The notes beneath the pieces were generated by a model. The model saw only the letters and a program-made list of their open reading frames with translations. It ran no database searches and was not told where the DNA came from. A program made the translations under genes and the position numbers. A DNA stretch of 14,478 nucleotides from contig CBEVQO010000012.1 in the NCBI GenBank assembly GCA_965552055.1, positions 1-14,478 on the forward strand. Reading direction: 5' to 3'. This document shows positions 1 to 14,478 of this stretch, piece after piece. The stretch's first letter is position 1; every line of letters begins with the position of its first letter. The stretch comes from an uncultured bacterium (GTDB taxonomy: Bacteria > Hydrothermota > UBA3073 > NMUJ01 > CBEVQO01).

Positions 1-355
1 CACCTCTGTCATCTGTCCATGGTGGATAAATTATATTACCCTCCTCGTCAAGATGGGGAGGCTTCCAGAAAGTTAACCCACCGGCTATTAAACACTGTGA
101 TACATAATTGGCACAATCGCGCTTCCGCAATGTGTCTGTACCTACAATAATAGGGCGAGTATAACTGTGATAAGGCCACTCGTCTTTAAAACGAATAGAA
201 TGAGGTTTATCCAATGGACCACCATTATTTCTCAGAGTATCATTAGGGTAATAAGTCCAATCTTTAACCCATCTATCAGCATAGCGTGCTACTTGTGTTC
301 TTTCAAAAGCATAAACATTGTTAATTATCAAGAATGCAACGACTATCTTTTTCAT
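1..355 (-). CDS. Exported putative amidase (Amidase_6-like, papain/NlpC-P60 fold), 5' part only; runs off the window edge
   Basis: Not in the ORF track. Translated by hand from ATG at 355: MKKIVVAFLIINNVYAFERTQVARYADRWVKDW...RKRDCANYVSQCLIAGGLTFW..., open to base 1. It has a signal-peptide-like N-terminus and the 'YAxxW...DCANYVSQCLxAGG' motif recalled for the Amidase_6 family. It overlaps the upstream stop as ATGA and is preceded by GGAGG. Confidence 0.8.
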   Translation of the reverse strand, partial: MKKIVVAFLIINNVYAFERTQVARYADRWVKDWTYYPNDTLRNNGGPLDKPHSIRFKDEWPYHSYTRPIIVGTDTLRKRDCANYVSQCLIAGGLTFWKPPHLDEEGNIIYPPWTDDRG

Positions 356-1329
356 TTTTCACCTCCTTGTAATTCTTTTTCTTTCTGAATAAATTTTTGA
401 TAAGTAGGTAAAAAATCTAGTACTTCCTGGGCATGTTCTCGCACATAAGGATTAGGATCATTTAATGACCCTCGTATTAGCTCAATCGCTTTCGGAGTAC
501 CTACTCTCATAAGATGAATAAGCGCAATCTCTCGTAAAATGAAATTATCGCTGTTGAGTCTGTGCATAATTTCTTTCCAAGAATATATACTTCCAATAAG
601 ATGTGTCATAGGAATCTCACACCAAGGGTCATCCTTGCGACCAATAGGAGGAGGTGGAAATTTTCTGCTATATTCTTCTAAAAGCATTATCGATTCTTCG
701 GTACCTAACGCCATTAGTGCATCAGGATTGGGATGTTCTTTTAAGACTCGCCAAGATGCAGTATCTCTTAAAAATGCTAGTATTATAGCAGATGTCTTCC
801 TTAAATCTTTGTCTTCTAAAAACTCTCGTAGGATTTTCTTTAAAATAGGTATACAAGTAGTATCTTCAAGATATAGGCAATTTGCTACTACTTTCGCATA
901 AAGGATAATAGATTTTCTCGCTTTAGCTTGTATTGCCTCATCTTTACTATTCAGTGCTTCTATAAGTATGGGCAAACCATCTGGATCAGCTGCATGCGCT
1001 ATTCTATCGATTATCCACATTTTTTCTTCCTTTACACTTTTGAACTTTTGTGGATCAGTTGGGCGTGCGTTTCTCTTCAAATTATTCCATTGTTCAATAA
1101 TTTCTGTAATTTTCCTTTGTCGAATTATACCTTGGTCTGTATATAAAGAAAACCATAATCTCAACCAGTTCGTTTTCCTTTTACTCCTATCAAATGCTGG
1201 CGAGAGCGGTTCTGCTTTCTCCACTTCCCATTGCATAACTTTTCTCTTACCTTTTTCTTCACTATATAATGGAATAGAATAAGACATTAGTATAACTATA
1301 AAAATCATCCAAAAATTAATCCTTACCAT
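352..1329 (-). CDS. Exported HEAT/PBS-lyase-repeat protein
   Basis: 325 aa with a hydrophobic signal peptide (MVRINFWMIFIVILMSYSIPLYS). HEAT-like units include LPILIEALNSKDEAIQAKARKSI, LNSDNFILREIALIHL and LNDPNPYVREHAQEVL. RBS AGGAGG lies upstream. Confidence 0.8.
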   Translation of the reverse strand: MVRINFWMIFIVILMSYSIPLYSEEKGKRKVMQWEVEKAEPLSPAFDRSKRKTNWLRLWFSLYTDQGIIRQRKITEIIEQWNNLKRNARPTDPQKFKSVKEEKMWIIDRIAHAADPDGLPILIEALNSKDEAIQAKARKSIILYAKVVANCLYLEDTTCIPILKKILREFLEDKDLRKTSAIILAFLRDTASWRVLKEHPNPDALMALGTEESIMLLEEYSRKFPPPPIGRKDDPWCEIPMTHLIGSIYSWKEIMHRLNSDNFILREIALIHLMRVGTPKAIELIRGSLNDPNPYVREHAQEVLDFLPTYQKFIQKEKELQGGEK

Positions 1330-3607
1330 ACCCCCTCCTTTTTAATCTTACCTTATTGAGACATACCTTCATTTCATTTATTATAATCGAAAAAAAAAAA
1401 GTTGTCAAGCTGAAATTCTTATTTCCATATTTTGAATTGTCTTTCCATTGTAATTCAATCTCATCATAATCTATCGCATCGGCAACGAAGTTAGAAGGTG
1501 CATTGGGCAACACTTTTGCAGATGTATCACAGGGCTCGGAATAAATCGTATCCCCATCTCTCTCCAAATAAATTGCCTTTACTGTGATATGCCATTCGCC
1601 GAAACTGAGTGAATCAGTGATGTAGGAGAAAGAATTTGCAGGCACAAAAGCAGAAAAGAAATCGCCATCGGGAAGTTCCCTTTGCCCGTAGATATAAAAT
1701 CCATTGTGCAATTTATCGTAATCCCACTCTATTTTTAATATTCGCTCAACGATTTGATCCACACTTAAATTACTAACAGAGTAAAAGTAAAAAGGCTCGC
1801 ATTCAACGGAATCGGAGAACGAAGAAAAATTTCCTTCATTGTCAATCGCCCTCACTTTGAAATAATAGGTTTTATGATAATCAAGATTTGACATAATTAC
1901 AGATGTTGTGTCACCAATAGTATCAACCTGCCAGTTACCACCAGCAGGCTTATACCATATTTCATATTTAGTGTTATGGCAGGAGTAGTCCTTCCAAGTT
2001 AATTTGATTTCTGAATAAGATAAAGATTGTGCTTTTAAGGAATCGGGTTTTGCGAGCAAAGCAGAGTCCACAGCAGAATAATAAGCAGGCTTGGGCTTCA
2101 ATCCTCTATCTACTATGCCATATACACCTACAGGATTTTCAAAATTCTCTGAAAATAAGTCTTTCACGCTATTTGATTTATATTCTTTGATTTTTAAACT
2201 GTCAAACCATGCTTCACCTGCACATCTAAATAACCCAAATTTTATCCATAGAGAACTTTTAAGATTTTCTTTCGGAATTTTCATTCTAAATTTCGTCCAG
2301 CCAATATTATAATCTATGCTTATGGAATCTTCATTTTTTGCATAAACAAAGAATTTAGCCCCTCCATTTTGTTCTACTTTTTCAATCAATGTTTTCATCC
2401 AGAATGTTATGACTATTGAGTCAGCAGATGTATCTATTTTCAATGACTTTTTGGCAGATGTCTCATGGCGCCAAGTAGTGGGCTCCAATTCAGGGGGAGA
2501 CGGATCATCCGTAACTGCCCAATCTCTGTGGAAGTGATAAGATATAGAACCTGAGCAAAACTCCGATGTATCGGGGTATATTTCGCCTGACTCAAATCTT
2601 TCGCCAATTCCATGATGATGAAAATGTGGCCAGTCAACAAATTGGAACCATATAACTTTACTTATAAAGGGAATTCTATCCAGTAATCTATAAACTTGCA
2701 CAAAATACATTGCTTTTTCTTCCTCACTTTTTATTCCGCCTATCCCCGCTGGCCAACCATATTCAGTTATCCATATCATTTTACCAGTATCACCGTAGCT
2801 TTCCATTATTTCTTTTATCCTTTTTACAAGTCTTTCCAGAGATTTCAAAGATGTACCATACGGCTCATACCAGTAAGGATGTATGTTCATACAATCGAAA
2901 TAATTTTTTATTGTTGGGTCTTTTTCATAAAGTGCTTTTATCCATGTAGTATCTTCGAATCTCGCAATCCCACCTATCAACACTATGGCATTGGAATCTA
3001 TTTCTTTTATGGCATTATAGGCAGTTTTCAAAACAGTTATATAAGCGTTAAGGTGTTCATCTGTATAAGCCAAATCAGGATTTTCTCTTAGATAATAACT
3101 ATAAGGACAAAACCAATCCCATGCATTTGGCTCATTCCACACATCCCATACTTTCACTCCCCAATCTCCCCATCCGTGTTTAGAGGCAAATTGACCTCCG
3201 GGCTTCATCCACGTTACTAAAGATTCCACATATGCTTTAAATTTGTTCATTTTATAACTATTATCAACATCTGGTGCCCAGCAATTCACTCCAGGATACT
3301 CCTCAACAGAAGTTTCTACGGTTGCCCAATAAGGAGCACTCAATATTCCACCGTAAACTTCTAAACTGCAACTATAAATAGCATCTAAAAGGATTTCCCA
3401 AGCTTCTTTCTGGGAATAATTATAAGAATTTTCCTCAGGCTCTAACCATGCCCAGTGAAATGGTTCACTCACTATTTTAAACTTAGCCTGTTTAATCGCA
3501 TTAAAATAGGCTCTGATATTGTAACTCCATGGCTCAGGCCTCCATGTAGGATTCGCCCCTATAAACCCTGGCTCCAGTTTATATAAAAGTAATAAATACA
3601 ACAGCAT
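1316..3607 (-). CDS. Clan GH-A glycoside hydrolase (GH5/GH39-like) with an inserted beta-sandwich and FN3 stalk; C-terminally truncated
   Basis: Motifs WDVWNEPN (acid/base Glu), NIHPY, IWITEYGW (nucleophile Glu) and YGIVD..KPKPAY, followed by FN3 repeats. Homology to the copy at 14316-14478 stops at about 1428 (…WKDNSKY). The remaining residues are read-through across the promoter. Confidence 0.8.
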   Translation of the reverse strand: MLLYLLLLYKLEPGFIGANPTWRPEPWSYNIRAYFNAIKQAKFKIVSEPFHWAWLEPEENSYNYSQKEAWEILLDAIYSCSLEVYGGILSAPYWATVETSVEEYPGVNCWAPDVDNSYKMNKFKAYVESLVTWMKPGGQFASKHGWGDWGVKVWDVWNEPNAWDWFCPYSYYLRENPDLAYTDEHLNAYITVLKTAYNAIKEIDSNAIVLIGGIARFEDTTWIKALYEKDPTIKNYFDCMNIHPYWYEPYGTSLKSLERLVKRIKEIMESYGDTGKMIWITEYGWPAGIGGIKSEEEKAMYFVQVYRLLDRIPFISKVIWFQFVDWPHFHHHGIGERFESGEIYPDTSEFCSGSISYHFHRDWAVTDDPSPPELEPTTWRHETSAKKSLKIDTSADSIVITFWMKTLIEKVEQNGGAKFFVYAKNEDSISIDYNIGWTKFRMKIPKENLKSSLWIKFGLFRCAGEAWFDSLKIKEYKSNSVKDLFSENFENPVGVYGIVDRGLKPKPAYYSAVDSALLAKPDSLKAQSLSYSEIKLTWKDYSCHNTKYEIWYKPAGGNWQVDTIGDTTSVIMSNLDYHKTYYFKVRAIDNEGNFSSFSDSVECEPFYFYSVSNLSVDQIVERILKIEWDYDKLHNGFYIYGQRELPDGDFFSAFVPANSFSYITDSLSFGEWHITVKAIYLERDGDTIYSEPCDTSAKVLPNAPSNFVADAIDYDEIELQWKDNSKYGNKNFSLTTFFFSIIINEMKVCLNKVRLKRRGYGKD
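1380..1408 (-). promoter_or_regulatory. Perfect sigma70 consensus promoter with a T11 tract in the spacer (copy 1)
   Basis: The minus strand reads TTGACA (1408-1403), a 17-bp spacer ACTTTTTTTTTTTCGAT, then TATAAT (1385-1380). It lies about 50 bp upstream of the HEAT gene. Confidence 0.9.
1428..2048 (-). repeat. Shared FN3 stalk, copy A
   Basis: 1428-1590 matches 14316-14478 (11 mismatches in 163 bp by hand count). About 1623-2048 is a more diverged homolog of 10458-10897 and 5982-6317. Confidence 0.9.
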
Positions 3608-3615
3608 ACTCCCTC

Positions 3616-5880
3616 CTACTTTAACTTTATTAATTTTAAATTCTCATAGATAATCTTATCCCCCTTCTTCATCTTTATCTTTACAAAATATAAGCCTGAA
3701 GGCAGATCTTCTCTTTGCCAGATAAAAGAATATTCCCCCTGCTTCAAATTGCCTTTATAAATCTCATCTACACATTTACCGAGTAAGTTGTAAACTTTTA
3801 TCTCAACTTCACAATCTTCTGGCACTGTATAACAGATAACCGTCCTTTTTCTAAATGGATTTGGCTTAATACAAGCATGCAAAACTTTAGCACGCGACAA
3901 TTTAGCATCTCCATAAACCTTAACGATGAAAAATTTTGAAGTATCCATATTTGATGCCACTTTAATTTCGTCATAATCAGGATACACTCTTATTATCTGG
4001 AATATATCATCCATTCTTATATCACTGACATCTTCTATTTTGGTGCAGACTTTGCCCTCATAAACTCCCGATTCTTCATCATTTTCAAGTAAAGTTACAG
4101 CGATGCCTTTTGGATTGCGATTAGATGAAACTATGCAAATCGCCACATCACGCTTATTTGTAACACTCTCGCCATATAATCTAAGGTATAAAGTGTCTCC
4201 CGTTGAAATCGAATCCACAACTTTCTGATAATCGCAAGAATAATTTCTCACAGAATCTATTTTTAGTGGCTCATGATTTACACCTTTTATAAAATCTGCA
4301 GAATAAGATATCAATGAATATCTCCCGCTTATGAGGGATGATAACCCAGCGCTATCCTCATTGAAAAAGTTATTTTTAAGAATGAGAATACCTGTGTCCT
4401 GTTCACCCGAGCCCTTATGCATTATCTCAAAATCTTTCTGATAAGTGTTGTAATAAATGTTTGAATTTTGAATTATTGCAGTGTCATTTTTTCTCGTTAT
4501 TAATTTAATTGCCCCATTGTCAACTATAAGACAACTATCAATTATGAATTTATCGATTAACGAATCGAGAATTGCAATCCCGTCCTCACTTTTGTTTCCT
4601 GCAATTAGATTTCCTTTTACTACACATTTTCCAGGATACCATTGTAATCCAAAGTAAATGACAGAATAACCTTTTGCTTGATTATTCACAATTACATTGT
4701 TCACAATGCTATCAAATTGACCTCCAAATCCGGCCAGAGTTCCAAAAGAATTCGTTTCATTATTAAATACAAAATTATCTGTGAAGGTTAATTTCATTTT
4801 TGGACAACCATAAAATCCTTCCCAACAACAAGCCACTGACCCTATTTCTCTGCCACTTTCATTATTAATAAAGATATTTGATTTAATGCTTACTTTTGTG
4901 CTTTCAATCTCTCCCCCTATTACATTATCTATTGCTCCATTCTTTATATTTTCGAAAATGTTATTTTCAATTTTGACTTGGCTTTCTCCTATACGTATTC
5001 CAGCACCTTCTATATCTCTAATAACATTATTGCTAATAGTTCCTGTTGATATTCCATAGTAAGGGAAATGCTTAACTTCACGGTATCCGATCGTTTGCCA
5101 TGGGGAACTTTTATTATTTTGCACTATATTGCTATCGAAGTCACAATGACTTGCTCTTACAAAAAGAGAAGCACTTGATGGTGCTTCATTCCCTTCAATT
5201 GTGCATCGCCTAACCTGTGCCCACGAATACATATCTACTGCAATCGCTCCCACTCCTTTATTACCCATCACCTTACAATCATAAACAAATAAAGTGCAAC
5301 TCCAACATACACCTAAAATTCCATAATAACCAGTAACTTCATTCTCCTTAATCATACAATTTCTAACCATCATATAAGCGGCATTTTCAGCTCCTATCCC
5401 CGCAAAATATTTACCATAATTTTTATAAACCACACACGATCCGATTTCAATCGCCGAGTAAAGAACCAAAATTCCACCTCCGCCATCATGAGGATAAGCA
5501 CCTGTTGCCTTACCACCTGTAAGTGTTAAATTTTTTATCTTTGTCGCGGGATTGCCAATCCATGTGGAATCCATAAAAATACAATGCCATGCTGTATCTT
5601 TGGAATCTTGTGAAATCGCTGTGAGAGTACAAAGTTCAGGTGAAATCCCCATCAAAACTATTGAATCCAGCAAAATTAATCCAACATAGCCAATGCTTGT
5701 ATCCCATGGACACATCGCAGTATCATAATTTATGGCAAGATGGTATTTGCCCGGTAGCAAAATAATGGTATCAATGTCTGGGGTTGACCTCGTTTTATAA
5801 ATCACTGACTGCAAACTTTCTCCTTCAAAACCCACAGTATCACAATACCATATTGTAAGTATGAGGAAAAATTTTATCAC
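3616..5880 (-). CDS. Right-handed parallel beta-helix (pectin-lyase-like) protein with T9SS type A/FlgD-Ig-like C-terminal sorting domain
   Basis: Repeated 'NCxIxxNx' / 'IxNNIFxN' beta-helix rungs and a DGGGGI motif. C-terminus KPNPFRKRTVICYTV…IKVYNLLGK…LPSGLYFVKI…KLIKLK. GTG start with a short hydrophobic leader. Confidence 0.8.
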   Translation of the reverse strand: MIKFFLILTIWYCDTVGFEGESLQSVIYKTRSTPDIDTIILLPGKYHLAINYDTAMCPWDTSIGYVGLILLDSIVLMGISPELCTLTAISQDSKDTAWHCIFMDSTWIGNPATKIKNLTLTGGKATGAYPHDGGGGILVLYSAIEIGSCVVYKNYGKYFAGIGAENAAYMMVRNCMIKENEVTGYYGILGVCWSCTLFVYDCKVMGNKGVGAIAVDMYSWAQVRRCTIEGNEAPSSASLFVRASHCDFDSNIVQNNKSSPWQTIGYREVKHFPYYGISTGTISNNVIRDIEGAGIRIGESQVKIENNIFENIKNGAIDNVIGGEIESTKVSIKSNIFINNESGREIGSVACCWEGFYGCPKMKLTFTDNFVFNNETNSFGTLAGFGGQFDSIVNNVIVNNQAKGYSVIYFGLQWYPGKCVVKGNLIAGNKSEDGIAILDSLIDKFIIDSCLIVDNGAIKLITRKNDTAIIQNSNIYYNTYQKDFEIMHKGSGEQDTGILILKNNFFNEDSAGLSSLISGRYSLISYSADFIKGVNHEPLKIDSVRNYSCDYQKVVDSISTGDTLYLRLYGESVTNKRDVAICIVSSNRNPKGIAVTLLENDEESGVYEGKVCTKIEDVSDIRMDDIFQIIRVYPDYDEIKVASNMDTSKFFIVKVYGDAKLSRAKVLHACIKPNPFRKRTVICYTVPEDCEVEIKVYNLLGKCVDEIYKGNLKQGEYSFIWQREDLPSGLYFVKIKMKKGDKIIYENLKLIKLK

Positions 5881-5885
5881 ACAAA

Positions 5886-8318
5886 TTACCCCATCATAAA
5901 TTTTAACTTAATTATTTTTGTGTCAAGAGAAAAGTTGAGAAATTTTGAGCTGTTGTATTTTCTTACTATAAGGAATGGATTTTTATCATAATCCCACTCT
6001 ATTTTCAATATTCGCTCAACGATTTGATGTGCTTTTAAATCATTAACAGGATAGAAATAATTGGGCTGACATTTTACGGAATCGGAAAATGCAGAAGCAT
6101 GCCCCTTATCATCAATTGCCCTAACCTTAAAGTAATACTCTTTGTGGTAATCAAGGTTATCAACAATTGCACAGGTAGTATCACTAACGGTATCAACCTG
6201 CCACTCGCCACCAGCAGGCTTATACCATATTTCATAGCCCGTATTCTTCTTTGAGTTATCGCACCACTCGAGTTTTACTTCGGAATAGGATAGGGGAAAA
6301 GCAGTGAGTGAGGTGGGAGGGTTAAGTTTAATTTCAACAACCACAGAATTTGAAAAATTTGAAAAGTAATCACCCGCAATTGCTCGAACCCTATATTGAT
6401 ATTCATTACCCAAACTTACAGCATTATCCACATAAGAAGTAACATTGTCATTGACAACAGCTATCAATTGACTATTGCGATAAATTTCAAATTTCTCCTC
6501 ATTAAAAGAATTGTCTTGCCATGAAAGTTTTACAAAACTTTCATCCACGAAAGCCTGTAAATTAGAGGGTGCATATATTGGGCGCCGTCCGAAAACAGTA
6601 TATTCAAAAACTACATCTGAGGGTTTTGCAGGTTGCCATACAACCTCAGAGACTTCGCCATCGATGATGTCAACTATTCGAACTTCGTAAACATAGGTTC
6701 TTAAAGTAACTGTATTTCCTGAAATTGAAACAGGTTCGCACCAGCCCTCTTCCCATTGACAAGGTGGTGAAGTTGGGTCTCCTTTTGACCAGCCAACAGT
6801 TTCCTTTCTTCCCCATATCCATAATTCAATGTAGTCGGAATGTGGCAAATTAACGGTTTTTCTGACCTCGTGCCTTTTAACTATCCAGTACATTCCGTGT
6901 GGCAATGGTCTCATTGGAAAGTCCATTATATACCAGTCAGTGGCAGAGTAATCTGTACCACCACTTGCAGTGTGATGCTCCACCTGATAGGGCAGTTTTG
7001 CATACTTTAGCGCACGCTCTGCATTGATACGCCCATAACCTGTATATTTATCCCACCCTGTAGGTGGTTTATCATCTGCCGATATTCTTATGAGCCACAT
7101 TATATCGTCGTTTGTCAAATCCGGTCTGAAACCCTTTAGAAGTGCCGCAAGCCCTGTAACAAAAGGTGTCGCCATAGAGGTACCTGAAAGATAACGGTAT
7201 GGTTTACCCTGAAAATCATTTGCTGTCCAAGTGGATAAGATATCCCTGTCATCATTGTTTGGATAAGGGTTGGTTCCACCTGGTGCAACAACATCTATAT
7301 GGTCTCCATAAGTTGAAAAGTTTGAGCGTATCCCATTATTCTGGGTCGCCCCTACTGCGAGAACACATGTGAAACCTGCAGGAAAGAGCAAGTTTTCCTT
7401 CCCTGTATTCCCCATTGCTGCAACGGGCACCCTGTCCATCTCATAGGCATAGTGGAAAGCCCATCTTATTATTCTAGAATACCTAGAACCGCCCCAGCTG
7501 TTATTTAAAACATCACAACCAACGTCTACTGCTCTTACTATCGCAGTATAAAAGGAATCTGCTGGTTCCACAAATGTGCCATATGCATCCACCTCTAATC
7601 CTTCAGTGTATATATTAGCATTCCAATCTGTACCTGCCACTCCAAGGCTGTTATTAGTTTTTGCTGAAGCAATTCCAGCTACATGTGTTCCATGTGCTCC
7701 ATAATAATAAGGGTCACCGCTTACCTTGCCAGCTAAATCTTCGTGATCCGATTTTACACCACAGTCAATGATACCTATCAGCACATGTGAAGACCCTTTA
7801 AAAATATCCCATGCTTCAACCGCATGAATATCTTCACCGGGTGTTCCACCTGCCTGCCCTGTGTTATGAAGTCCCCATTGATATCCAAAAAATTCATCAT
7901 TAGGGATGGCAAGCAATTTTATCATTGGTATGCGTTCAGCAAAGATAACTTCATCAAGTGCGTTTAAATCTTTAACCACCGAATCAAGTTCTGTTCCATC
8001 GGGAAATCTTACTCTGTAAATTCGTGACAGGTCGAGTTTTTTCACAATCTTACCTTTTGGTGAATATGCAATGGTATCAGCAGGATTATAATCAGGATAC
8101 GGTCTTGTCATACTCTCTGCATTATAGGAGGTTAGGACATTTCTCATGTTTTCACTCATAGTAACTGACTCAAGTGAGAGACTCTTTGCTCCTGCTGGTG
8201 CCTGTATTGCATCTTGTTTTACATACATAATGATTTCATGCTCATAGAGGTCAACACTATGAGGGGTAATATCCCCCCAAGATAACCTATTATAATTAAT
8301 GCTAACATCATTTTGCAC
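5886..8318 (-). CDS. S8 subtilisin-family serine peptidase with prodomain and FN3 stalk; C-terminally truncated and probably frameshifted near the start (true start likely ATG 8311)
   Basis: Catalytic motifs GIIDCG (Asp), HGTHVAG (His), AAMGN (oxyanion Asn) and GTSMATP (Ser), then FN3 domains. Stalk homology ends at 5982 (…EWDYDK). The GTG at 8318 lies inside the GGAGG RBS that serves ATG 8311. Confidence 0.9.
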   Translation of the reverse strand: MQNDVSINYNRLSWGDITPHSVDLYEHEIIMYVKQDAIQAPAGAKSLSLESVTMSENMRNVLTSYNAESMTRPYPDYNPADTIAYSPKGKIVKKLDLSRIYRVRFPDGTELDSVVKDLNALDEVIFAERIPMIKLLAIPNDEFFGYQWGLHNTGQAGGTPGEDIHAVEAWDIFKGSSHVLIGIIDCGVKSDHEDLAGKVSGDPYYYGAHGTHVAGIASAKTNNSLGVAGTDWNANIYTEGLEVDAYGTFVEPADSFYTAIVRAVDVGCDVLNNSWGGSRYSRIIRWAFHYAYEMDRVPVAAMGNTGKENLLFPAGFTCVLAVGATQNNGIRSNFSTYGDHIDVVAPGGTNPYPNNDDRDILSTWTANDFQGKPYRYLSGTSMATPFVTGLAALLKGFRPDLTNDDIMWLIRISADDKPPTGWDKYTGYGRINAERALKYAKLPYQVEHHTASGGTDYSATDWYIMDFPMRPLPHGMYWIVKRHEVRKTVNLPHSDYIELWIWGRKETVGWSKGDPTSPPCQWEEGWCEPVSISGNTVTLRTYVYEVRIVDIIDGEVSEVVWQPAKPSDVVFEYTVFGRRPIYAPSNLQAFVDESFVKLSWQDNSFNEEKFEIYRNSQLIAVVNDNVTSYVDNAVSLGNEYQYRVRAIAGDYFSNFSNSVVVEIKLNPPTSLTAFPLSYSEVKLEWCDNSKKNTGYEIWYKPAGGEWQVDTVSDTTCAIVDNLDYHKEYYFKVRAIDDKGHASAFSDSVKCQPNYFYPVNDLKAHQIVERILKIEWDYDKNPFLIVRKYNSSKFLNFSLDTKIIKLKFMMG
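5900..5926 (-). promoter_or_regulatory. Probable sigma70 promoter at cassette junction
   Basis: TTGACA (5926-5921), 15-bp spacer, TAAAAT (5905-5900), about 20 bp upstream of the GTG at 5880. The spacer is shorter than optimal. Confidence 0.55.
5982..6317 (-). repeat. Shared FN3 stalk, copy B
   Basis: 5982-6282 is identical to 10562-10862 (301 bp, offset 4580). Similarity continues to 6317/10897. Confidence 0.95.
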
Positions 8319-9267
8319 CTCCTTTTAAAAAGTTCTCATCATTTATTAAAGGTCTCTTATTACAACCATTTGCATCCATTATCCACAGTCCGTTTACCTT
8401 TCTACTCGCATAAATTATCTTTTTACCATCGGGTGACCAGTTCGCATCACTACCTGCTGCAAGTGGAACAGGATCTGAGCCATCTGAATCCATAACCCAG
8501 ACCATAGGACCCTCACCAGGTCTCTGCGCAACAAACAGAATCTTTGTGCCATTGGGAGAGTAACGTAGCTCGCTAAACTGGAAGATATCCAAATTTTCAC
8601 CATCTAATAATACAGTGTAGCCTTCTCCTAAGGTATCTGCATAAGCAATCACAGGATGCTCACCTTTCCAGTCCACAAAGATTAGGTGCTCGCCGTCAGG
8701 AGACCAACTTGGGTAATTCCATCCCCACTTTCCGACCATTCGCTTTTTGGTTCCATCTGAATTAATCATCCATATGCCCGCAGAATCTCCTAAGGGTACA
8801 TGATACACAATCTTTTTCCCGTCGGGTGACCATCTTGGATAGAAGTTTTCGCCCGCATCAGTAAGTTGAACAAGACTATCGCCATGCAACCATAACTTCC
8901 ATATAGCCTTACCCATGGAGAACACCAGCCACTCTCCATCAGGAGATATATCAAGGTCATACGGACAAGGTATCTGAGTAAAATAACCTGTCAAAACCGC
9001 ATGAAACGTGGAGTCTTCGAGATCGTAAATATAAATCCCCTGTGTGTCCTTCCTTGGATTATCAATCAAATTATAGGGGTCACTATCATATACAAAAATA
9101 ATGAAAGTTTCATCGGGTGAAAAAACAGCATAGTGATAACTGGAAGTCTCCCACACACTGCCAGGCTCTTCTGTGCAATAGTGCTTTCGAGAAATAGGAC
9201 AACCACTAATTAGCAAGACAGCCATCAAAATCGCCATTTTCTTAAGTTCATTGTAGGCCATTTTCAT
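8308..9267 (-). CDS. TolB-like (PD40 repeat) beta-propeller lipoprotein, paralog 1
   Basis: Lipobox LLISG|C and repeated (F/W/I/Y)SP(D/N)G motifs. ATGA coupling on both sides. Confidence 0.88.
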   Translation of the reverse strand: MKMAYNELKKMAILMAVLLISGCPISRKHYCTEEPGSVWETSSYHYAVFSPDETFIIFVYDSDPYNLIDNPRKDTQGIYIYDLEDSTFHAVLTGYFTQIPCPYDLDISPDGEWLVFSMGKAIWKLWLHGDSLVQLTDAGENFYPRWSPDGKKIVYHVPLGDSAGIWMINSDGTKKRMVGKWGWNYPSWSPDGEHLIFVDWKGEHPVIAYADTLGEGYTVLLDGENLDIFQFSELRYSPNGTKILFVAQRPGEGPMVWVMDSDGSDPVPLAAGSDANWSPDGKKIIYASRKVNGLWIMDANGCNKRPLINDENFLKGGAK

Positions 9268-10372
9268 TCCTCATCTCCTTTCAAGAAGTTTTCATCATTT
9301 ATTAAAGGTCTCTTATTACAACCATTTGCATCCATTATCCACAGTCCGTTTACCTTTCTACTCGCATAAATTATCTTTTTACCATCGGGTGACCAGTTCG
9401 CATCACTACCTGCTGCAAGTGGAACAGGATCTGAGCCATCTGAATCCATAACCCAGACCATAGGACCCTCACCAGGTCTCTGCGCAACAAACAGAATCTT
9501 GGAACCGTTGGGAGAGTATCTGGGCATCTTAATATGATCTATGGCTCCGATGTCCTCCATTTCAAGAATTTTTTGGATATTTTTCCCGGATGTATCGGCA
9601 TGATAAACACTCCCGCCCAAACCTACATATAAAAAACCCTCCCCATCAGGAGACCAGTCTGGATAAATACCATTTAATATCCACCGTTTATTTTTCCCAT
9701 CGCTATCCATGAGCCATACTCCTGCAGAATCCACGGGTAAAAGTTTGTGAAACACAATCTTTTTTCCATCTGGTGACCACCTTGGGTAGAAGTTTTCACC
9801 GGCATCAGTAAGTTGGACTAGACTATCGCCACGCAACCACAACTTCCATATAGCCTTCCCCATGGAGAACACCAGCCACTCTCCATCAGGAGATATATCA
9901 AGGTCATACGGACAAGGTATCTGAGTAAAATAACCTGTCAAAACCGCATGAAACGTGGAGTCTTCGAGATCGTAAATATAAATCCCCTGTGTGTCCTTCC
10001 TTGGATTATCAATCAAATTATAGGGGTCACTATCATATACAAAAATAATGAAAGTTTCATCGGGTGAAAAAACAGCATAGTGATAACTGGAAGTCTCCCA
10101 CACACTGCCAGGCTCTTCTGTGCAATAGTGCTTTCGAGAAATAGGACAACCACTAATTAGCAAGACAGCCATCAAAATCGCCATTTTCTTAAGTTCATTG
10201 TAGGCCATTTTCATTCCTCATCTCCTTTCAAGAAGTTTTCATCATTTATTAAAGGTCTCTTATTACAACCATTTGCATCCATTATCCACAGTCCGTTTAC
10301 CTTTCTACTCGCATAAATTATCTTTTTACCATCGGGTGACCAGTTCGCATCACTACCTGCTGCAAGTGGAAC
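8336..10372 (-). repeat. Tandem duplication of the TolB-like gene (two full copies plus a 3' remnant)
   Basis: 8912-9425 equals 9859-10372 (514 bp identical, period 947). 8336-8544 equals 9292-9500 (209 bp identical). Confidence 0.95.
9264..10214 (-). CDS. TolB-like (PD40 repeat) beta-propeller lipoprotein, paralog 2
   Basis: Same lipobox and SPDG repeats. Near-identical to paralog 1 at both ends and divergent in the central ~80 aa. Confidence 0.88.
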   Translation of the reverse strand: MKMAYNELKKMAILMAVLLISGCPISRKHYCTEEPGSVWETSSYHYAVFSPDETFIIFVYDSDPYNLIDNPRKDTQGIYIYDLEDSTFHAVLTGYFTQIPCPYDLDISPDGEWLVFSMGKAIWKLWLRGDSLVQLTDAGENFYPRWSPDGKKIVFHKLLPVDSAGVWLMDSDGKNKRWILNGIYPDWSPDGEGFLYVGLGGSVYHADTSGKNIQKILEMEDIGAIDHIKMPRYSPNGSKILFVAQRPGEGPMVWVMDSDGSDPVPLAAGSDANWSPDGKKIIYASRKVNGLWIMDANGCNKRPLINDENFLKGDEE

Positions 10373-10378
10373 CCTCAT
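10211..10378 (-). pseudogene. 3' remnant of a third TolB-like copy, fused in frame to an ATG just downstream of the promoter (55 aa)
   Basis: 10211-10372 is identical to 9264-9425. The frame opens at ATG 10378: MRVPLAAGSDANWSPDGKKIIYASRKVNGLWIMDANGCNKRPLINDENFLKGDEE*. Confidence 0.85.
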
Positions 10379-10386
10379 TCTTATTT

Positions 10387-10415
10387 ATTATAATCGAAAA
10401 AAAAAAAGTTGTCAA
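10387..10415 (-). promoter_or_regulatory. Perfect sigma70 consensus promoter with a T11 tract in the spacer (copy 2)
   Basis: TTGACA (10415-10410), 17-bp spacer, TATAAT (10392-10387). 10383-10418 is identical to 1376-1411 (36 bp). Confidence 0.9.
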
Positions 10416-10441
10416 GCTAAAATTAAAATCTTTCATTTTCA

Positions 10442-11281
10442 TCATTGATGACAAGAATATGAGAAAGAATCTGCGGGTACAAAAGCAGAGAAGAAATCGC
10501 CGTTAGCAGGTTCTCCGGGATAGAGATGCCTCTGCCCATAGATATAAAATCCATTATGTAATTTATCATAATCCCACTCTATTTTCAATATTCGCTCAAC
10601 GATTTGATGTGCTTTTAAATCATTAACAGGATAGAAATAATTGGGCTGACATTTTACGGAATCGGAAAATGCAGAAGCATGCCCCTTATCATCAATTGCC
10701 CTAACCTTAAAGTAATACTCTTTGTGGTAATCAAGGTTATCAACAATTGCACAGGTAGTATCACTAACGGTATCAACCTGCCACTCGCCACCAGCAGGCT
10801 TATACCATATTTCATAGCCCGTATTCTTCTTTGAGTTATCGCACCACTCGAGTTTTACTTCGAAATAGAAAAGGGTAGAAGCGGTGAGTGAGGTGGGGAA
10901 ATTTAATCTTAATAGCGACCATCTATAGACATGCACACTCCATGAATCTATTGTGTCTCTTAAAATCAAACTATCTACATTTAATTTTCTGTTTTCAAAC
11001 ATTACTTCGACTTCTATGTTTTTACAAATAATGGATCTATCCTCTCGGAACTGAAAAATAGGTTTAAGTTCAACGAATTTAGTCGTACAGGATGGGTTAG
11101 CCACAAATAAATAACGGTATCCTTCATAGGTCTTGGTCATTAAATCAACTGGTGGGACACTTTCGATAGGATAAGGAATATCCTGTGCAGTAAAAACATT
11201 TGTGAGATATCGTAATTCATTTCTAACGAGTTTTTTAACAACCTTCCAGGAAGGATAATGCAACCTGTGAACCCAGCTGAA
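10442..11281 (-). pseudogene. In-frame continuation of the 11282-12463 gene after a single TGA: end of barrel, beta-domain and truncated FN3 stalk
   Basis: Same frame as 12463 (12463-11263 = 1200). It reads …GAKGLW*FSWVHRLHYPSWKVVK…. The track ORF 10442-11263 starts at a TTG with no evident RBS. Stalk homology ends at about 10458 (…DSFSY). Confidence 0.8.
10458..10897 (-). repeat. Shared FN3 stalk, copy C
   Basis: Contains the 301-bp exact match to 5982-6282. It aligns further to copy A (from 1623) with a 15-bp insertion. Confidence 0.95.
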
Positions 11282-12463
11282 TCACCATAAACCTTTTGCA
11301 CCATTTATAATGGCATCATATGCTTCGAATCTCGCATTATTATATTTAAGTATAAAGGGACAATAGATAAAAGGGGACGGACAAGTATCAAAACAAGTTG
11401 CTTCGAGTTCTATCCATATGGGCTTATTTGGTGCGACATTTTTCAGCATGTTAATAAAAGTCTTTATTTGTCTGAGATAATGGAAATTGGGATTACCTTT
11501 CCACATCCTTTCGAGATGTCTCCAATTGGCTGGATAAATGTTTATACTAATTACATCAGCAGCTTCGCTATATTTCGCCCAATCTCTATAAACATGCTTC
11601 ATCGCACTATCAAAGCTTACACCACTATTTACCATCATCGGATGTGCACATGCAAACCTCATAATAACAATATGATTCGGATCCCACTTTTTTACAGTAC
11701 CATACATCTCTTTAATGTCATTATATCTTTTTTCTAACATTTCATCATTATAATTTCTTTCAAAATGCCAGCAGATAAAAATCATAGTATCAGTATCTGT
11801 AATTACAGTCTCAGGTGGCCAATCAGACATCCACGAATAATCGTAATCAGGTCGAAGGTTTTTTATCGTATCTCCATACAACAGCCAGCCCGTTATGTTC
11901 CATACAAGTTCTTGATAATTCATATACCCTATAAATGACTTGCGCCAAGCCGCATTGTCTAAAATATTTCTCAACCAGCTACATTTAATTTTGACAATAG
12001 AATCATGAGATAGAGGCAATAAAGTTTTGGTATCAAGCCAGTGTGGCCCAGGATAACCCCTTCCATAAAAATCAGGCAAAAAAGGTGAATCATCAGAAAT
12101 TAAATAAATGCCATATTGTTCAAGAGTGTCTATCCAGTCAAAAGTAGGTTCTACATAAATTGAGCGGATAACTCCATCATTAGGATCCATACGATATTCC
12201 TTTATTTCCATTGGACCACTTAAAATTTTATGCATCTCATACCCGTTTGCATTATAGGGGTGACACGCTGTGTAAAGATTTACCATATTAAAACCACATG
12301 CTTTTAATGTCTCACATGCCTGAGTTACTGAATATAACTCGTATAATGATCTGGCACCAGGGAAATAAGCAACCCCTAGCGGGAAAAACGGTTCGCCATC
12401 CAATAGCATTACCCCATCTTCTCTAAAACATACATTTGCCATTAAAAGAAAAATTACCACCAT
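11282..12463 (-). CDS. Putative glycoside-hydrolase-like TIM-barrel protein, N-terminal part of an interrupted gene
   Basis: Motifs DGEPFFPLGV, GFNMVN, DPNHIV, ADVISINIYP, KPIWIELE and AIINGAKGL follow the strand pattern of clan GH-A-like barrels. Short hydrophobic leader; RBS GGGGG. The family cannot be assigned by eye. Confidence 0.65.
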   Translation of the reverse strand: MVVIFLLMANVCFREDGVMLLDGEPFFPLGVAYFPGARSLYELYSVTQACETLKACGFNMVNLYTACHPYNANGYEMHKILSGPMEIKEYRMDPNDGVIRSIYVEPTFDWIDTLEQYGIYLISDDSPFLPDFYGRGYPGPHWLDTKTLLPLSHDSIVKIKCSWLRNILDNAAWRKSFIGYMNYQELVWNITGWLLYGDTIKNLRPDYDYSWMSDWPPETVITDTDTMIFICWHFERNYNDEMLEKRYNDIKEMYGTVKKWDPNHIVIMRFACAHPMMVNSGVSFDSAMKHVYRDWAKYSEAADVISINIYPANWRHLERMWKGNPNFHYLRQIKTFINMLKNVAPNKPIWIELEATCFDTCPSPFIYCPFILKYNNARFEAYDAIINGAKGLW

Positions 12464-12472
12464 ATTCCCCCT

Positions 12473-13810
12473 TTATTTTAACTTTATAAACTTCTGCTTA
12501 TACAAATTCTTCTTACTTTTTACAATGAGTAAATAACTTCCAGGGAGCAATTTCCTCACATCAATCACATTCTTCAAATTACTTTTAAAACATAATCTAC
12601 CTGTAATATCGTATATCTCAATGTATCCGCACTGTGTTGATTCGTCTAATTGCAAATAAATTTTATTCTTCACAGGATTGGGATAAATTTTAATGACGGG
12701 GAGATATGATTTTTCTTCGATACCAAGGTACCGGCATGAATCACAAACTGAAATGTAAATAAAGTTTTTATCTAATCTTACATCCCAGAAAAATCCACAA
12801 CCATTTGGAGTTAATTCTGCCACTGGTATCCTTTCTATTACGGTATCCGCTTTGCTATCAATAATAGTCAATCCATAGCCTTCAATTAGCCAAATTTTAT
12901 CCAAACATGTATCTACAACTCCCCTCGGTAAATAGTAGGCATTTCCGAAAATAAAACCTATAGAAGTTATTTTTTTCTTTATTAAACTATCTTCTATTAA
13001 TGTTATAGCGAATAAATCAGACGACCCCCAAGCCTCACCTTTTGTTGTATATGTTATTATATTATTATTTTTATCGATGCATATAAGGTTTCCACATTGT
13101 TTAAGAGTATCGGTAATATAATAATAGACTCCTTTGTCATGCCAATGTTTTTTTCTTTCAAAGATATCATCGTCTCTAGTTAAGAGATGTGAAATTTTAC
13201 TTTTAACCACACCAATATTTTCGGGTACTAGCTGAACATAAATTTCATTTCTTGAGTTATTAAATAAAATTAATTGCATCCAAAGATATCCCCAGGTCTT
13301 AATGCTGCTATAGTGAAGGAATTTATCCTTAAAAGCATCCCATACAACGAAAAAATCATTGTTTATACAAAATAGTCTGTTTGAGCGTGAGTCAAATGAG
13401 TAAGGAGTGATTAAAACAACGGTGTCTTGAATTAGAAGTGAAGTATCGTTTATTATAAAAGTTCTTCCATCGGTGCACGCATATACTTTATTTAATTTCT
13501 TTACGGCAAAAACATTCCAAATCCATTCGCAATCCAAAAATTTTCTGAGTATAGTTCCGGAAGTATCTATTACCCTTAAGCCTTTCTTATATACAGTAAA
13601 ATAAAAGTGCCGAGAAACTGCACCTCCCAAATAAATTCTGCCATTAATCACATCGAATCTGCCTGGCATTGAAATTGGTAATATTTTTACAACTTCGTGA
13701 GTCTCCCTATCAAGCATCACAATGCAATCCGTGGCATACAGATGCGAAAAGAATGCCTCAATGCCTGTTATCAGAAGAATCATTCCCCAAAATAATTTAA
13801 ATTTACCCAT
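12473..13810 (-). CDS. Exported beta-propeller-like (YncE/YVTN-like) protein with T9SS type A C-terminal sorting domain
   Basis: The likely start is ATG 13810 after AGGAGG (the track gives 13828). Signal peptide ends …SHLYA. Beta-rich repeats (NKVYA, NRLFC, NEIYV, DKIWL). C-terminus GIEE…IYPNPVKNKIYLQ…EIYDITGR…PGSYLLIV…KFIKLK. Confidence 0.75.
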   Translation of the reverse strand: MGKFKLFWGMILLITGIEAFFSHLYATDCIVMLDRETHEVVKILPISMPGRFDVINGRIYLGGAVSRHFYFTVYKKGLRVIDTSGTILRKFLDCEWIWNVFAVKKLNKVYACTDGRTFIINDTSLLIQDTVVLITPYSFDSRSNRLFCINNDFFVVWDAFKDKFLHYSSIKTWGYLWMQLILFNNSRNEIYVQLVPENIGVVKSKISHLLTRDDDIFERKKHWHDKGVYYYITDTLKQCGNLICIDKNNNIITYTTKGEAWGSSDLFAITLIEDSLIKKKITSIGFIFGNAYYLPRGVVDTCLDKIWLIEGYGLTIIDSKADTVIERIPVAELTPNGCGFFWDVRLDKNFIYISVCDSCRYLGIEEKSYLPVIKIYPNPVKNKIYLQLDESTQCGYIEIYDITGRLCFKSNLKNVIDVRKLLPGSYLLIVKSKKNLYKQKFIKLK

Positions 13811-13826
13811 AATCTCCTCCTTATTC

Positions 13827-13853
13827 ATATTATGCGCCTACTCTTTTTGTCAA
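13827..13853 (-). promoter_or_regulatory. Probable sigma70 promoter at cassette junction
   Basis: TTGACA (13853-13848), 15-bp spacer, TAATAT (13832-13827), then AGGAGG and ATG 13810. The TGA inside TTGACA is the stop codon of the upstream ORF. Confidence 0.55.
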
Positions 13854-14478
13854 GAAAAAATTTCATCCGGATAATATGTTTTGATTTTAATATATTCTTT
13901 TTTTCCTTCGGTTTCAATCCATGCATAAGAGTATTGCGAGACACATGCAGGGCATCTGCCATTTTGCAATGGCTCTTCTCTGAAAGGAGCATTTAGGTTT
14001 TGAGATAGCCATATTTTACCCTGTTTTGTGAACATAAGCACAGGAGGGTCAAACTTCCTGTTGTTATTGGCAAATAATGCCTTGTCAACATCGCTCCACA
14101 CGGGGATTGAATATTCCTCGGTATATACCGTATCCGAAGCAATTTCATAATAGGGGTCGGGCTCTACCATTATTTTTTCGAAACAATACAACCGAAATTC
14201 ATATTTCCTGTAAGGCTGTGATGCAAATGTGTAATTTTGAGTATTTGATGACAAAAATACTTTTTGCCATGAATTTTCTCCTTCTTCTTTCCACATCAAT
14301 ACATAGTAATCTTCGTATTTTGAGTTGTCTTTCCATTTTAATTCAATCTCATCATAATAAATTGCATCGGCAACGAAGTTAGAAGGTGCATTGGGAACCA
14401 CTTTTGCAGATGTTGCACAGGTTTCGGAATAAATCGTATCCCCATCTCTCTCCAAATAAATTGCCTTTACTGTGATAT
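13850..14478 (-). CDS. 3' part of an FN3-stalk protein (start outside window), probably also truncated
   Basis: The frame is open to the window edge (…ITVKAIYLERDGDTIYSE…). A complete FN3 (PNAPSNF…W…YEFRLY) is followed by an 'ALFANNNRK' region. There is no sorting domain before the stop, which falls inside the promoter -35 box. Confidence 0.8.
   Translation of the reverse strand, partial: ITVKAIYLERDGDTIYSETCATSAKVVPNAPSNFVADAIYYDEIELKWKDNSKYEDYYVLMWKEEGENSWQKVFLSSNTQNYTFASQPYRKYEFRLYCFEKIMVEPDPYYEIASDTVYTEEYSIPVWSDVDKALFANNNRKFDPPVLMFTKQGKIWLSQNLNAPFREEPLQNGRCPACVSQYSYAWIETEGKKEYIKIKTYYPDEIFS
14316..14478 (-). repeat. Shared FN3 stalk, copy D (portion alignable within the window)
   Basis: About 93% identical to 1428-1590. 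Confidence 0.9.

Follow-up and report, generated by a model that had tools for sequence, protein, structure and literature searches.

In Tannerella forsythia, the KLIKK peptidases are T9SS-type cargo with unrelated N-terminal catalytic domains (including S8) and near-identical C-terminal domains (CTDs), and their cognate inhibitor lipoproteins, the potempins, are encoded directly upstream (cited sections of PMC9890683, PMC4404884, and PMC7014623). All KLIKK peptidases are full-length proteins that each carry a CTD, and the potempins are beta-barrels of 98-132 aa, according to the cited section of PMC9890683. X-Tfe effectors of the Xanthomonadales X-T4SS likewise carry a variable N-terminal antibacterial hydrolase and a constant C-terminal signal (XVIPCD), usually with the immunity gene upstream (X-Tfi). 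They are type IV delivered and dispersed, each with its own signal, and a shared-body stub array does not figure in the cited sections (PMC6536674, PMC10933484). Polymorphic toxins of the Rhs/CDI/MafB kind are defined by a constant 5' body and 3' cassettes; a complete gene is accompanied by linked spare toxin/partner cassettes with recombination homology, immunity lies downstream of the 3' toxin, and Imm-HEAT is listed as an immunity class (cited section of PMC3482391). TANFOR proteins of Bacteroidetes are Fn3-containing polymorphic proteins with a C-terminal toxin and downstream immunity. Their proposed use of T9SS in interbacterial competition comes from gene neighborhood, not from a CTD on the toxin, and such competition is still treated as a hypothesis in the cited section of PMC7073777.

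The locus described here combines KLIKK/potempin-type pairs with mirror-image Rhs-type orphan cassettes. We analyzed a 14,478-nt stretch of DNA (the window), which is an entire contig (C12) of a 2.23-Mb, 97%-complete genome (G000). Hydrothermal-vent metagenomes are among the holders of this DNA; no RNA dataset is among those listed. The original prediction was of an inverted polymorphic locus. Its variable N-terminus, upstream partner, and 3' stub were all found, but a categorically new polarity was rejected, since KLIKK/potempin and X-Tfe/X-Tfi precede this locus and share it. In the literature searched, mostly papers outside subscription, we found no account of orphan cassettes lying upstream of, and feeding, a single CTD-tailed body. 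Unlike the KLIKK set, all heads but one end in stubs, the partners are ~300-aa propellers (PD40) or HEAT proteins, and the heads include peptidoglycan amidases. The C-terminus is Por_Secre_tail/TIGR04183 and not XVIPCD. The polarity is opposite to that of Rhs/CDI/MafB loci, and unlike their orphans, the orphans here keep a promoter and signal peptide and lack a C-terminal export tail.

Four units and the tail of a fifth are present on the minus strand, approximately at the coordinates first proposed. The upstream tail (13860..14478) was recognized by fn3 and by 97.2% identity over 536 nt to the full-length gene on contig C2. It is a short-stalk allele that skips aa ~725-810 and is cut at aa ~986 of that gene; a contig from run X1 bridges its junction (13575-13895). 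At this junction lies a TTGACA site with a 13-nt spacer, a non-consensus promoter (13829..13853), followed by a gene for a 451-aa protein (12473..13828) with its own type A CTD (Por_Secre_tail, 5.7e-11; TIGR04183). Only the CTD gives a match; the propeller first assigned to this protein was not confirmed. GH-B (10442..12463) consists of a GH42-like head and a stalk stub (10897-10458) that ends at aa 678, with an in-frame TGA at 11284-11282. A perfect sigma-70 consensus promoter (10387..10415; 12/12 match) with a T11 run in its 17-nt spacer comes next. It precedes the 3' remnant of a third TolB-like gene (10211..10372; 95.7% identical to the TolB gene ends) and two genes for TolB-like predicted lipoproteins. 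Copy 2 (9264..10214) matches PD40 (4e-22) and has a lipobox-like LISGC read from the sequence; copy 1 (8308..9267; PD40) is identical to it at the ends and 50-60% identical in the middle. The S8 protease gene (5886..8318) has D/H/S motifs and a stub (6317-5982) ending at aa 644. The following junction with its TTGACA site at 5926 (5900..5982; 15-nt spacer) recurs in metagenome contig L012 between another head and another cassette. A beta-helix protein with its own CTD (3616..5880; Beta_helix and Por_Secre_tail in Pfam), a member of a dispersed paralogue family, precedes GH-A (1316..3607), which comprises a clan GH-A-like head, a CBM-like region, and a short-stalk stub (~2047-1428) ending at aa ~834. 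A second perfect sigma-70 consensus promoter (1380..1408) has a T11 spacer run; in metagenome contig L011, the run is T9 and the spacer 15 nt. The HEAT-repeat partner (352..1329; HEAT_2, 1.6e-13) has a signal-peptide-like start and no CTD. Last is an Amidase_6 head (1..355; Pfam Amidase_6, conserved Cys/His/His) cut by the contig end; in L011, it is 433 aa long and ends in a stub of a domain common to the Amidase_3 gene. Pfam matches in the window thus comprise S8, PD40 (two genes), Beta_helix with Por_Secre_tail, HEAT_2, Amidase_6, Por_Secre_tail on the 451-aa gene, and fn3 in four ORFs.

Neither GH-A nor GH-B has a Pfam glycoside-hydrolase match, and no PDB match to GH-A was found by sequence. 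The glycoside-hydrolase calls originally made are nevertheless favored by ESM Atlas features (0.95 to a GH5-like/CBM4_9 cluster for GH-A and 0.90 to GH42-like for GH-B) and, for GH-A, by the motifs WNEP and ITEYG; the labels are putative, drawn from language-model features and motifs and not from Pfam. In the S8 gene, the signal-like start (ATG 8311) and the body are read in different frames, the shift falling at a G6 run (8278-8273); a contig from run X2 has one extra base at 8272. Two of the three complete heads in the window are therefore broken (the GH-B nonsense codon and the S8 frameshift in the signal region), whereas no full partner ORF is; the third TolB copy is a remnant.

The FN3 stalk occurs four times in the window, each time ending directly before a TTGACA site. 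Positions 5982-6281 and 10562-10861 are 100% identical over 300 nt (73% for 1712-2011), and 1421-1590 and 14309-14478 are 92% identical over 170 nt. These near-identical repeats, far beyond chance, bear out the proposal that unrelated catalytic N-termini share one FN3 stalk. The five stubs known from the array are 71-97% identical to the full-length gene and end at aa 644, 646, 678, ~834, and ~986 on its scale. The stalk had been said to be cut off just before each next promoter: TTGACA is indeed present at every junction, but there is no common cut position, and while the sites at 10415 and 1408 match sigma-70 at 12/12, those at 13853 and 5926 have TTGACA with 13- and 15-nt spacers. Perfect 12/12 sites number 38 genome-wide, and three are at these cassette junctions. 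Homopolymer lengths in the spacers differ between strains (T11/T9 at 1380-1408; A10/A9/A6 at L001 ~17690), which suggests phase variation of the cassettes.

GH-A and the fifth tail share a stalk allele lacking one FN3 repeat. In eight stalk copies, 5' and 3' segments occur in four allele combinations that meet at an invariant 14-nt box; the 3' segment (B) is identical at 119/172 positions between allele types and at 169-172/172 within them. This pattern marks the stalk alleles as mosaics produced by recombination. Among 50%-identity representatives, the search found close matches only from the locus or near-identical sequences, the others being generic FN3 proteins at 25-36%, and no stalk relatives were found in viral contigs. 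With the queries used, the stalk, phosphoesterase head, GH-A, and GH-B had no match in 271 other genomes of the phylum; the family of G000 consists of G000 alone.

The window is the middle part of an array of ~27 kb. BLAST of the window against the genome found matches at two contig ends, the stalk on C2 and a HEAT/amidase paralogue on C4. L011 matches both C12:1663-1 and C15:2409-1 at ~99% and so links these contigs, giving the order fifth tail, GH-B, S8, GH-A, Amidase_6, Amidase_3, full-length gene, and sprA. Two more cassettes beyond the left end of the window were reached in this way. A TolB-like gene precedes Amidase_3 (C15), and 5' of the full-length gene are three small genes, a promoter, and the Amidase_3 gene stub. 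The final 55 nt of C4 are identical to the left end of C12, and short, deletion-fused, stalk-derived pieces lie 5' of the HEAT/Amidase_6 paralogue promoter (C4:232340-232420). The overlap and this relic indicate that the C4 end may be the start of the array.

The full-length stalk-plus-CTD gene that had been predicted downstream was found at C2:486347-492022. Its 1,891-aa product has a metallophosphoesterase-like head (Metallophos scores on the L012 counterpart), the same FN3 stalk, a long body, and a T9SS type A tail. It matches fn3 and Por_Secre_tail (7.8e-12), ends in KKFVKIH, and matches TIGR04183 at aa 1816-1889 with 37.6 bits against a cut-off of 23. With this sorting domain and a signal peptide recognized by eye, it qualifies as T9SS type A cargo. 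The gene ends 80 nt before a SprA homologue (TIGR04189, 2e-57), and full-length stalk bodies number one per genome. The SprA homologue scored 194.5 bits against a cut-off of 200, and PorV is present. The GldK profile reached 38 bits against a cut-off of 350, and the GldL, GldM, and GldN profiles gave no match in the genome; they were likewise silent on control sequences. A complete T9SS is taken to have at least four of GldK, GldL, GldM, GldN, and SprA (PMC7073777). The predicted export machinery is accordingly T9SS-like at best. We found no description of T9SS in WOR-3 in the literature searched (mostly without subscription papers). About 71 CTD matches are present in the genome. An unannotated domain starting CP(F/Y)L...NNIL precedes the CTD in many WOR-3 secreted bodies; it was seen in the L001 full gene (aa ~1305-1640), L020, L021, L057, and an M23-like gene on C2 of G000.

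The array is real, polymorphic, and recurrent across a phylum. Other WOR-3 families and one Cytophagia-titled MAG also have the stub/promoter/partner/head layout, built on stalks unrelated to this one. In G126:C88 and G119:C43, the last 105 nt of an 834-aa head match the stalk of the following S8 gene at 91%, and G126:C4 has the same layout. A 179-nt, 95% stub precedes a caspase-like cassette in G107:C126, and in G147:C176, a CTD-less S8 precedes another TolB/S8 unit. In the Cytophagia-titled MAG (L104/L111), a full HEAT/Amidase_6-CTD unit follows Amidase_6 and M23-like heads that are truncated. Within G000, C2:25857-30766 encodes a 399-aa partner and then an M23-like head with body and CTD (1,129 aa), and the left end of C2 (C2:1-2946; layout at C2:1-1887) has a 108-nt body stub, a poly-T promoter, a 383-aa partner paralogue, and an M23-like head. 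Arrays are not general, since two near-complete genomes (G085 and G086) have a lone full-length TolB-like/Amidase_3 pair with its own CTD and no array, and G268, G167, and G139 have single full-length S8 pairs without an array. Two further loci were noted. In Elusimicrobiota, L160:2683-8393 has two Amidase_6 genes, each after a different gene (268 or 331 aa), and L091 (G126:C67) combines propeller lipoproteins and a DUF3108-like gene with phospholipase C-like heads in duplicate, which have a 539-nt identical repeat.

From the array with its single body, the strain differences in its cassettes, the mosaic stalks, and the pairing of HEAT with Amidase_6 and of TolB-like genes with S8 and Amidase_3, we propose the following, with a probability of roughly 0.6. 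Partner-plus-hydrolase cassettes with stalk stubs would serve one CTD-tailed gene beside sprA, recombination in the stalk would set which hydrolase is exported, and the heads would be antibacterial and inhibited by their cognate partners. An incoming cassette from kin would enter the expressed gene by homologous recombination in the stalk, its left end being joined immediately ahead of the cassette's own promoter; the old head would be displaced upstream and left with a stub. Deletion between a stub and the full stalk would re-fuse an upstream head onto the body. The fused protein would be exported through Sec and then SprA/PorV, across the inner and outer membranes respectively, and be displayed or released, and partners lacking a CTD would stay in the periplasm or on the membrane and inhibit their own head. 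Displaced cassettes would be kept as an immunity archive while their heads decay, and the homopolymer runs in promoter spacers may turn cassettes on and off.

An antibacterial purpose of the heads is modestly favored. Three unrelated peptidoglycan-hydrolase families occur among them (Amidase_6, Amidase_3, and M23), as do Zn-phospholipase C-like domains; GH, S8, C25, and phosphoesterase heads are also typical of feeding enzymes. The main rival builds on the latter: the heads would scavenge necromass, the partners would protect the producer during export, and the stubs would be acquisition debris, with no selection for switching or kin killing. Beyond the feeding-type heads, the abundance of CTD matches and the stand-alone full-length pairs in many relatives speak for it, and self-protection is the role shown for PotA and X-TfiXAC2610 (cited sections of PMC9890683 and PMC10933484). 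Scavenging leaves unexplained, however, why many heads share one body rather than having a tail each, why partners are intact and diversifying (the TolB pair; the two HEAT paralogues, C4 versus C12, are 59% identical) while heads are broken, and why peptidoglycan hydrolases are used repeatedly. We consider it unlikely as a full account, and scavenging with self-protection is compatible with an antibacterial purpose.

The switching component of the proposal draws on strain comparisons. A metagenome scan yielded 2 loci out of 63 pattern matches. In G000, the Amidase_3 head is truncated and its stalk stops at aa 646, whereas in L011, the same head is followed, up to the contig end, by sequence matching aa 523-932 of the full gene at 90%. 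The two carry different 3'-segment stalk alleles, and L011 is the product expected from a crossover in the 14-nt box between the G000 Amidase_3 stub and the full gene. In L012, the metallophosphoesterase head is itself a 650-aa stub that stops at aa 644, the same junction as the G000 S8 stub. Three new small genes follow, of which one is alignable to the G000 trio, and then a second head on the stalk (36% identical); the genes upstream differ too. Contigs from five runs show additional heads and junctions as loose ends. At L001:17815, runs X2 and X5 have different genes upstream of the phosphoesterase promoter; in X2 and X3, the stalk is attached to a second phosphoesterase head, and another gene follows the 5926 promoter in X2, a run possibly not independent of L011 and L012. 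Thus, the fixed gene order in relatives that would have told against the original prediction was not seen: L011 and L012 differ in cassette order and truncation. Linked orphan cassettes with homology to a complete gene and exchange of cassettes between strains are hallmarks of polymorphic toxins, and both are seen here, the latter on short-read contigs. Because cassette content differs among related strains, recombination probably swaps the exported enzyme.

Could the architecture be real and the strain switching an artifact, created where short reads were assembled through stalk repeats or where strains were mixed? C12, C15, C2, and C4 each break at stalk repeats with 55-nt overlaps, and no contig examined covers an entire stalk. 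Links from head to junction cross 220-450 nt of near-identical stalk in short reads, so the assembler may have chosen which head was put on the body; summed contig depths were not taken as copy numbers. However, the unique-to-unique differences (L012, L001:17815, X2, and X3) cross no repeat, and however the pieces are linked, a single body can complete only one of several heads, so most are necessarily truncated. Two window junctions were also carried independently, the fifth-tail junction by X1 and the GH-B stub junction, as a loose end, by X3. An artifact is improbable. Repeats at other contig ends are not stalk copies but members of an unrelated coiled-coil gene family, whose products begin with MNAEEKFWEAL; this family forms tandem arrays at C2:372982-375127, C3:257104-258615, and the ends of C13, C10, and C5 and causes several of the assembly breaks.

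As in KLIKK/potempin pairs, a dedicated partner gene lies directly upstream of the hydrolase. HEAT is directly 5' of Amidase_6 in 5/5 other genomes of the phylum with a match (of 271). A TolB-like propeller gene is 5' of the S8 homologue in 14/16 cases (13/14 loci, plus G147 but not G122) and 5' of Amidase_3 in 6/10, with one case at a contig edge and three, all f19 genomes, lacking the propeller. C-terminal bodies vary across genomes, and the partner-head pair persists. Tsi1 is propeller-like. The reading of upstream genes as partners is supported for the HEAT and TolB-like genes and unsupported for the beta-helix and 451-aa genes, which have their own export tails and whose GH neighbors lack relatives in the 271 genomes. 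Such CTD-bearing neighbors would be exported, a misfit with periplasmic immunity, and none of seven regions viewed around beta-helix paralogues elsewhere in G000 has a GH-like gene after them. Among Amidase_6 loci more broadly, HEAT is upstream in 13/79 versus 0/24 archaeal loci, 20 of which had a visible upstream ORF. The contrast is weak: the profile was itself seeded with 3 of the 13, HEAT is also missing from many bacteria that have peptidoglycan, and kin are non-independent. A complex prediction for Amidase_6 (L011) with HEAT gave 0.15 against a mark of 0.32 and was counted neither for nor against. At C8:29521-31781 in G000, two TolB-like lipoprotein genes surround a 129-aa alpha/beta-hydrolase-like fragment, resembling a decayed cassette whose partners are left as orphans. 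That the partners are instead chaperones, export adaptors, or surface anchors, as PorV-like or DUF3108-like partners elsewhere and the own CTDs of two window neighbors might suggest, is unlikely, because partner type tracks the catalytic head and not the stalk or tail, and partners persist without a functional head (C8). The partners probably inhibit their cognate heads.

A wider generalization is tentative, with the balance slightly against it. WOR-3 and related CTD-secreting lineages may use reverse-polarity polymorphic toxins exported via SprA/PorV, with heads including Amidase_6, Amidase_3, M23, S8, C25, C14, and Zn-phospholipase C-like domains, a recombination-loaded stalk, and a phase-variable upstream immunity archive in which HEAT, TolB-like, and BNR proteins would be new immunity families. 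The locus offers named, CTD-tailed candidate effectors with genetically fixed partners and illustrates how cassette switching would work where the secretion signal is C-terminal. Its order of partner, head, stalk stub, and promoter provides a mining rule for new hydrolase/inhibitor pairs in uncultured phyla.
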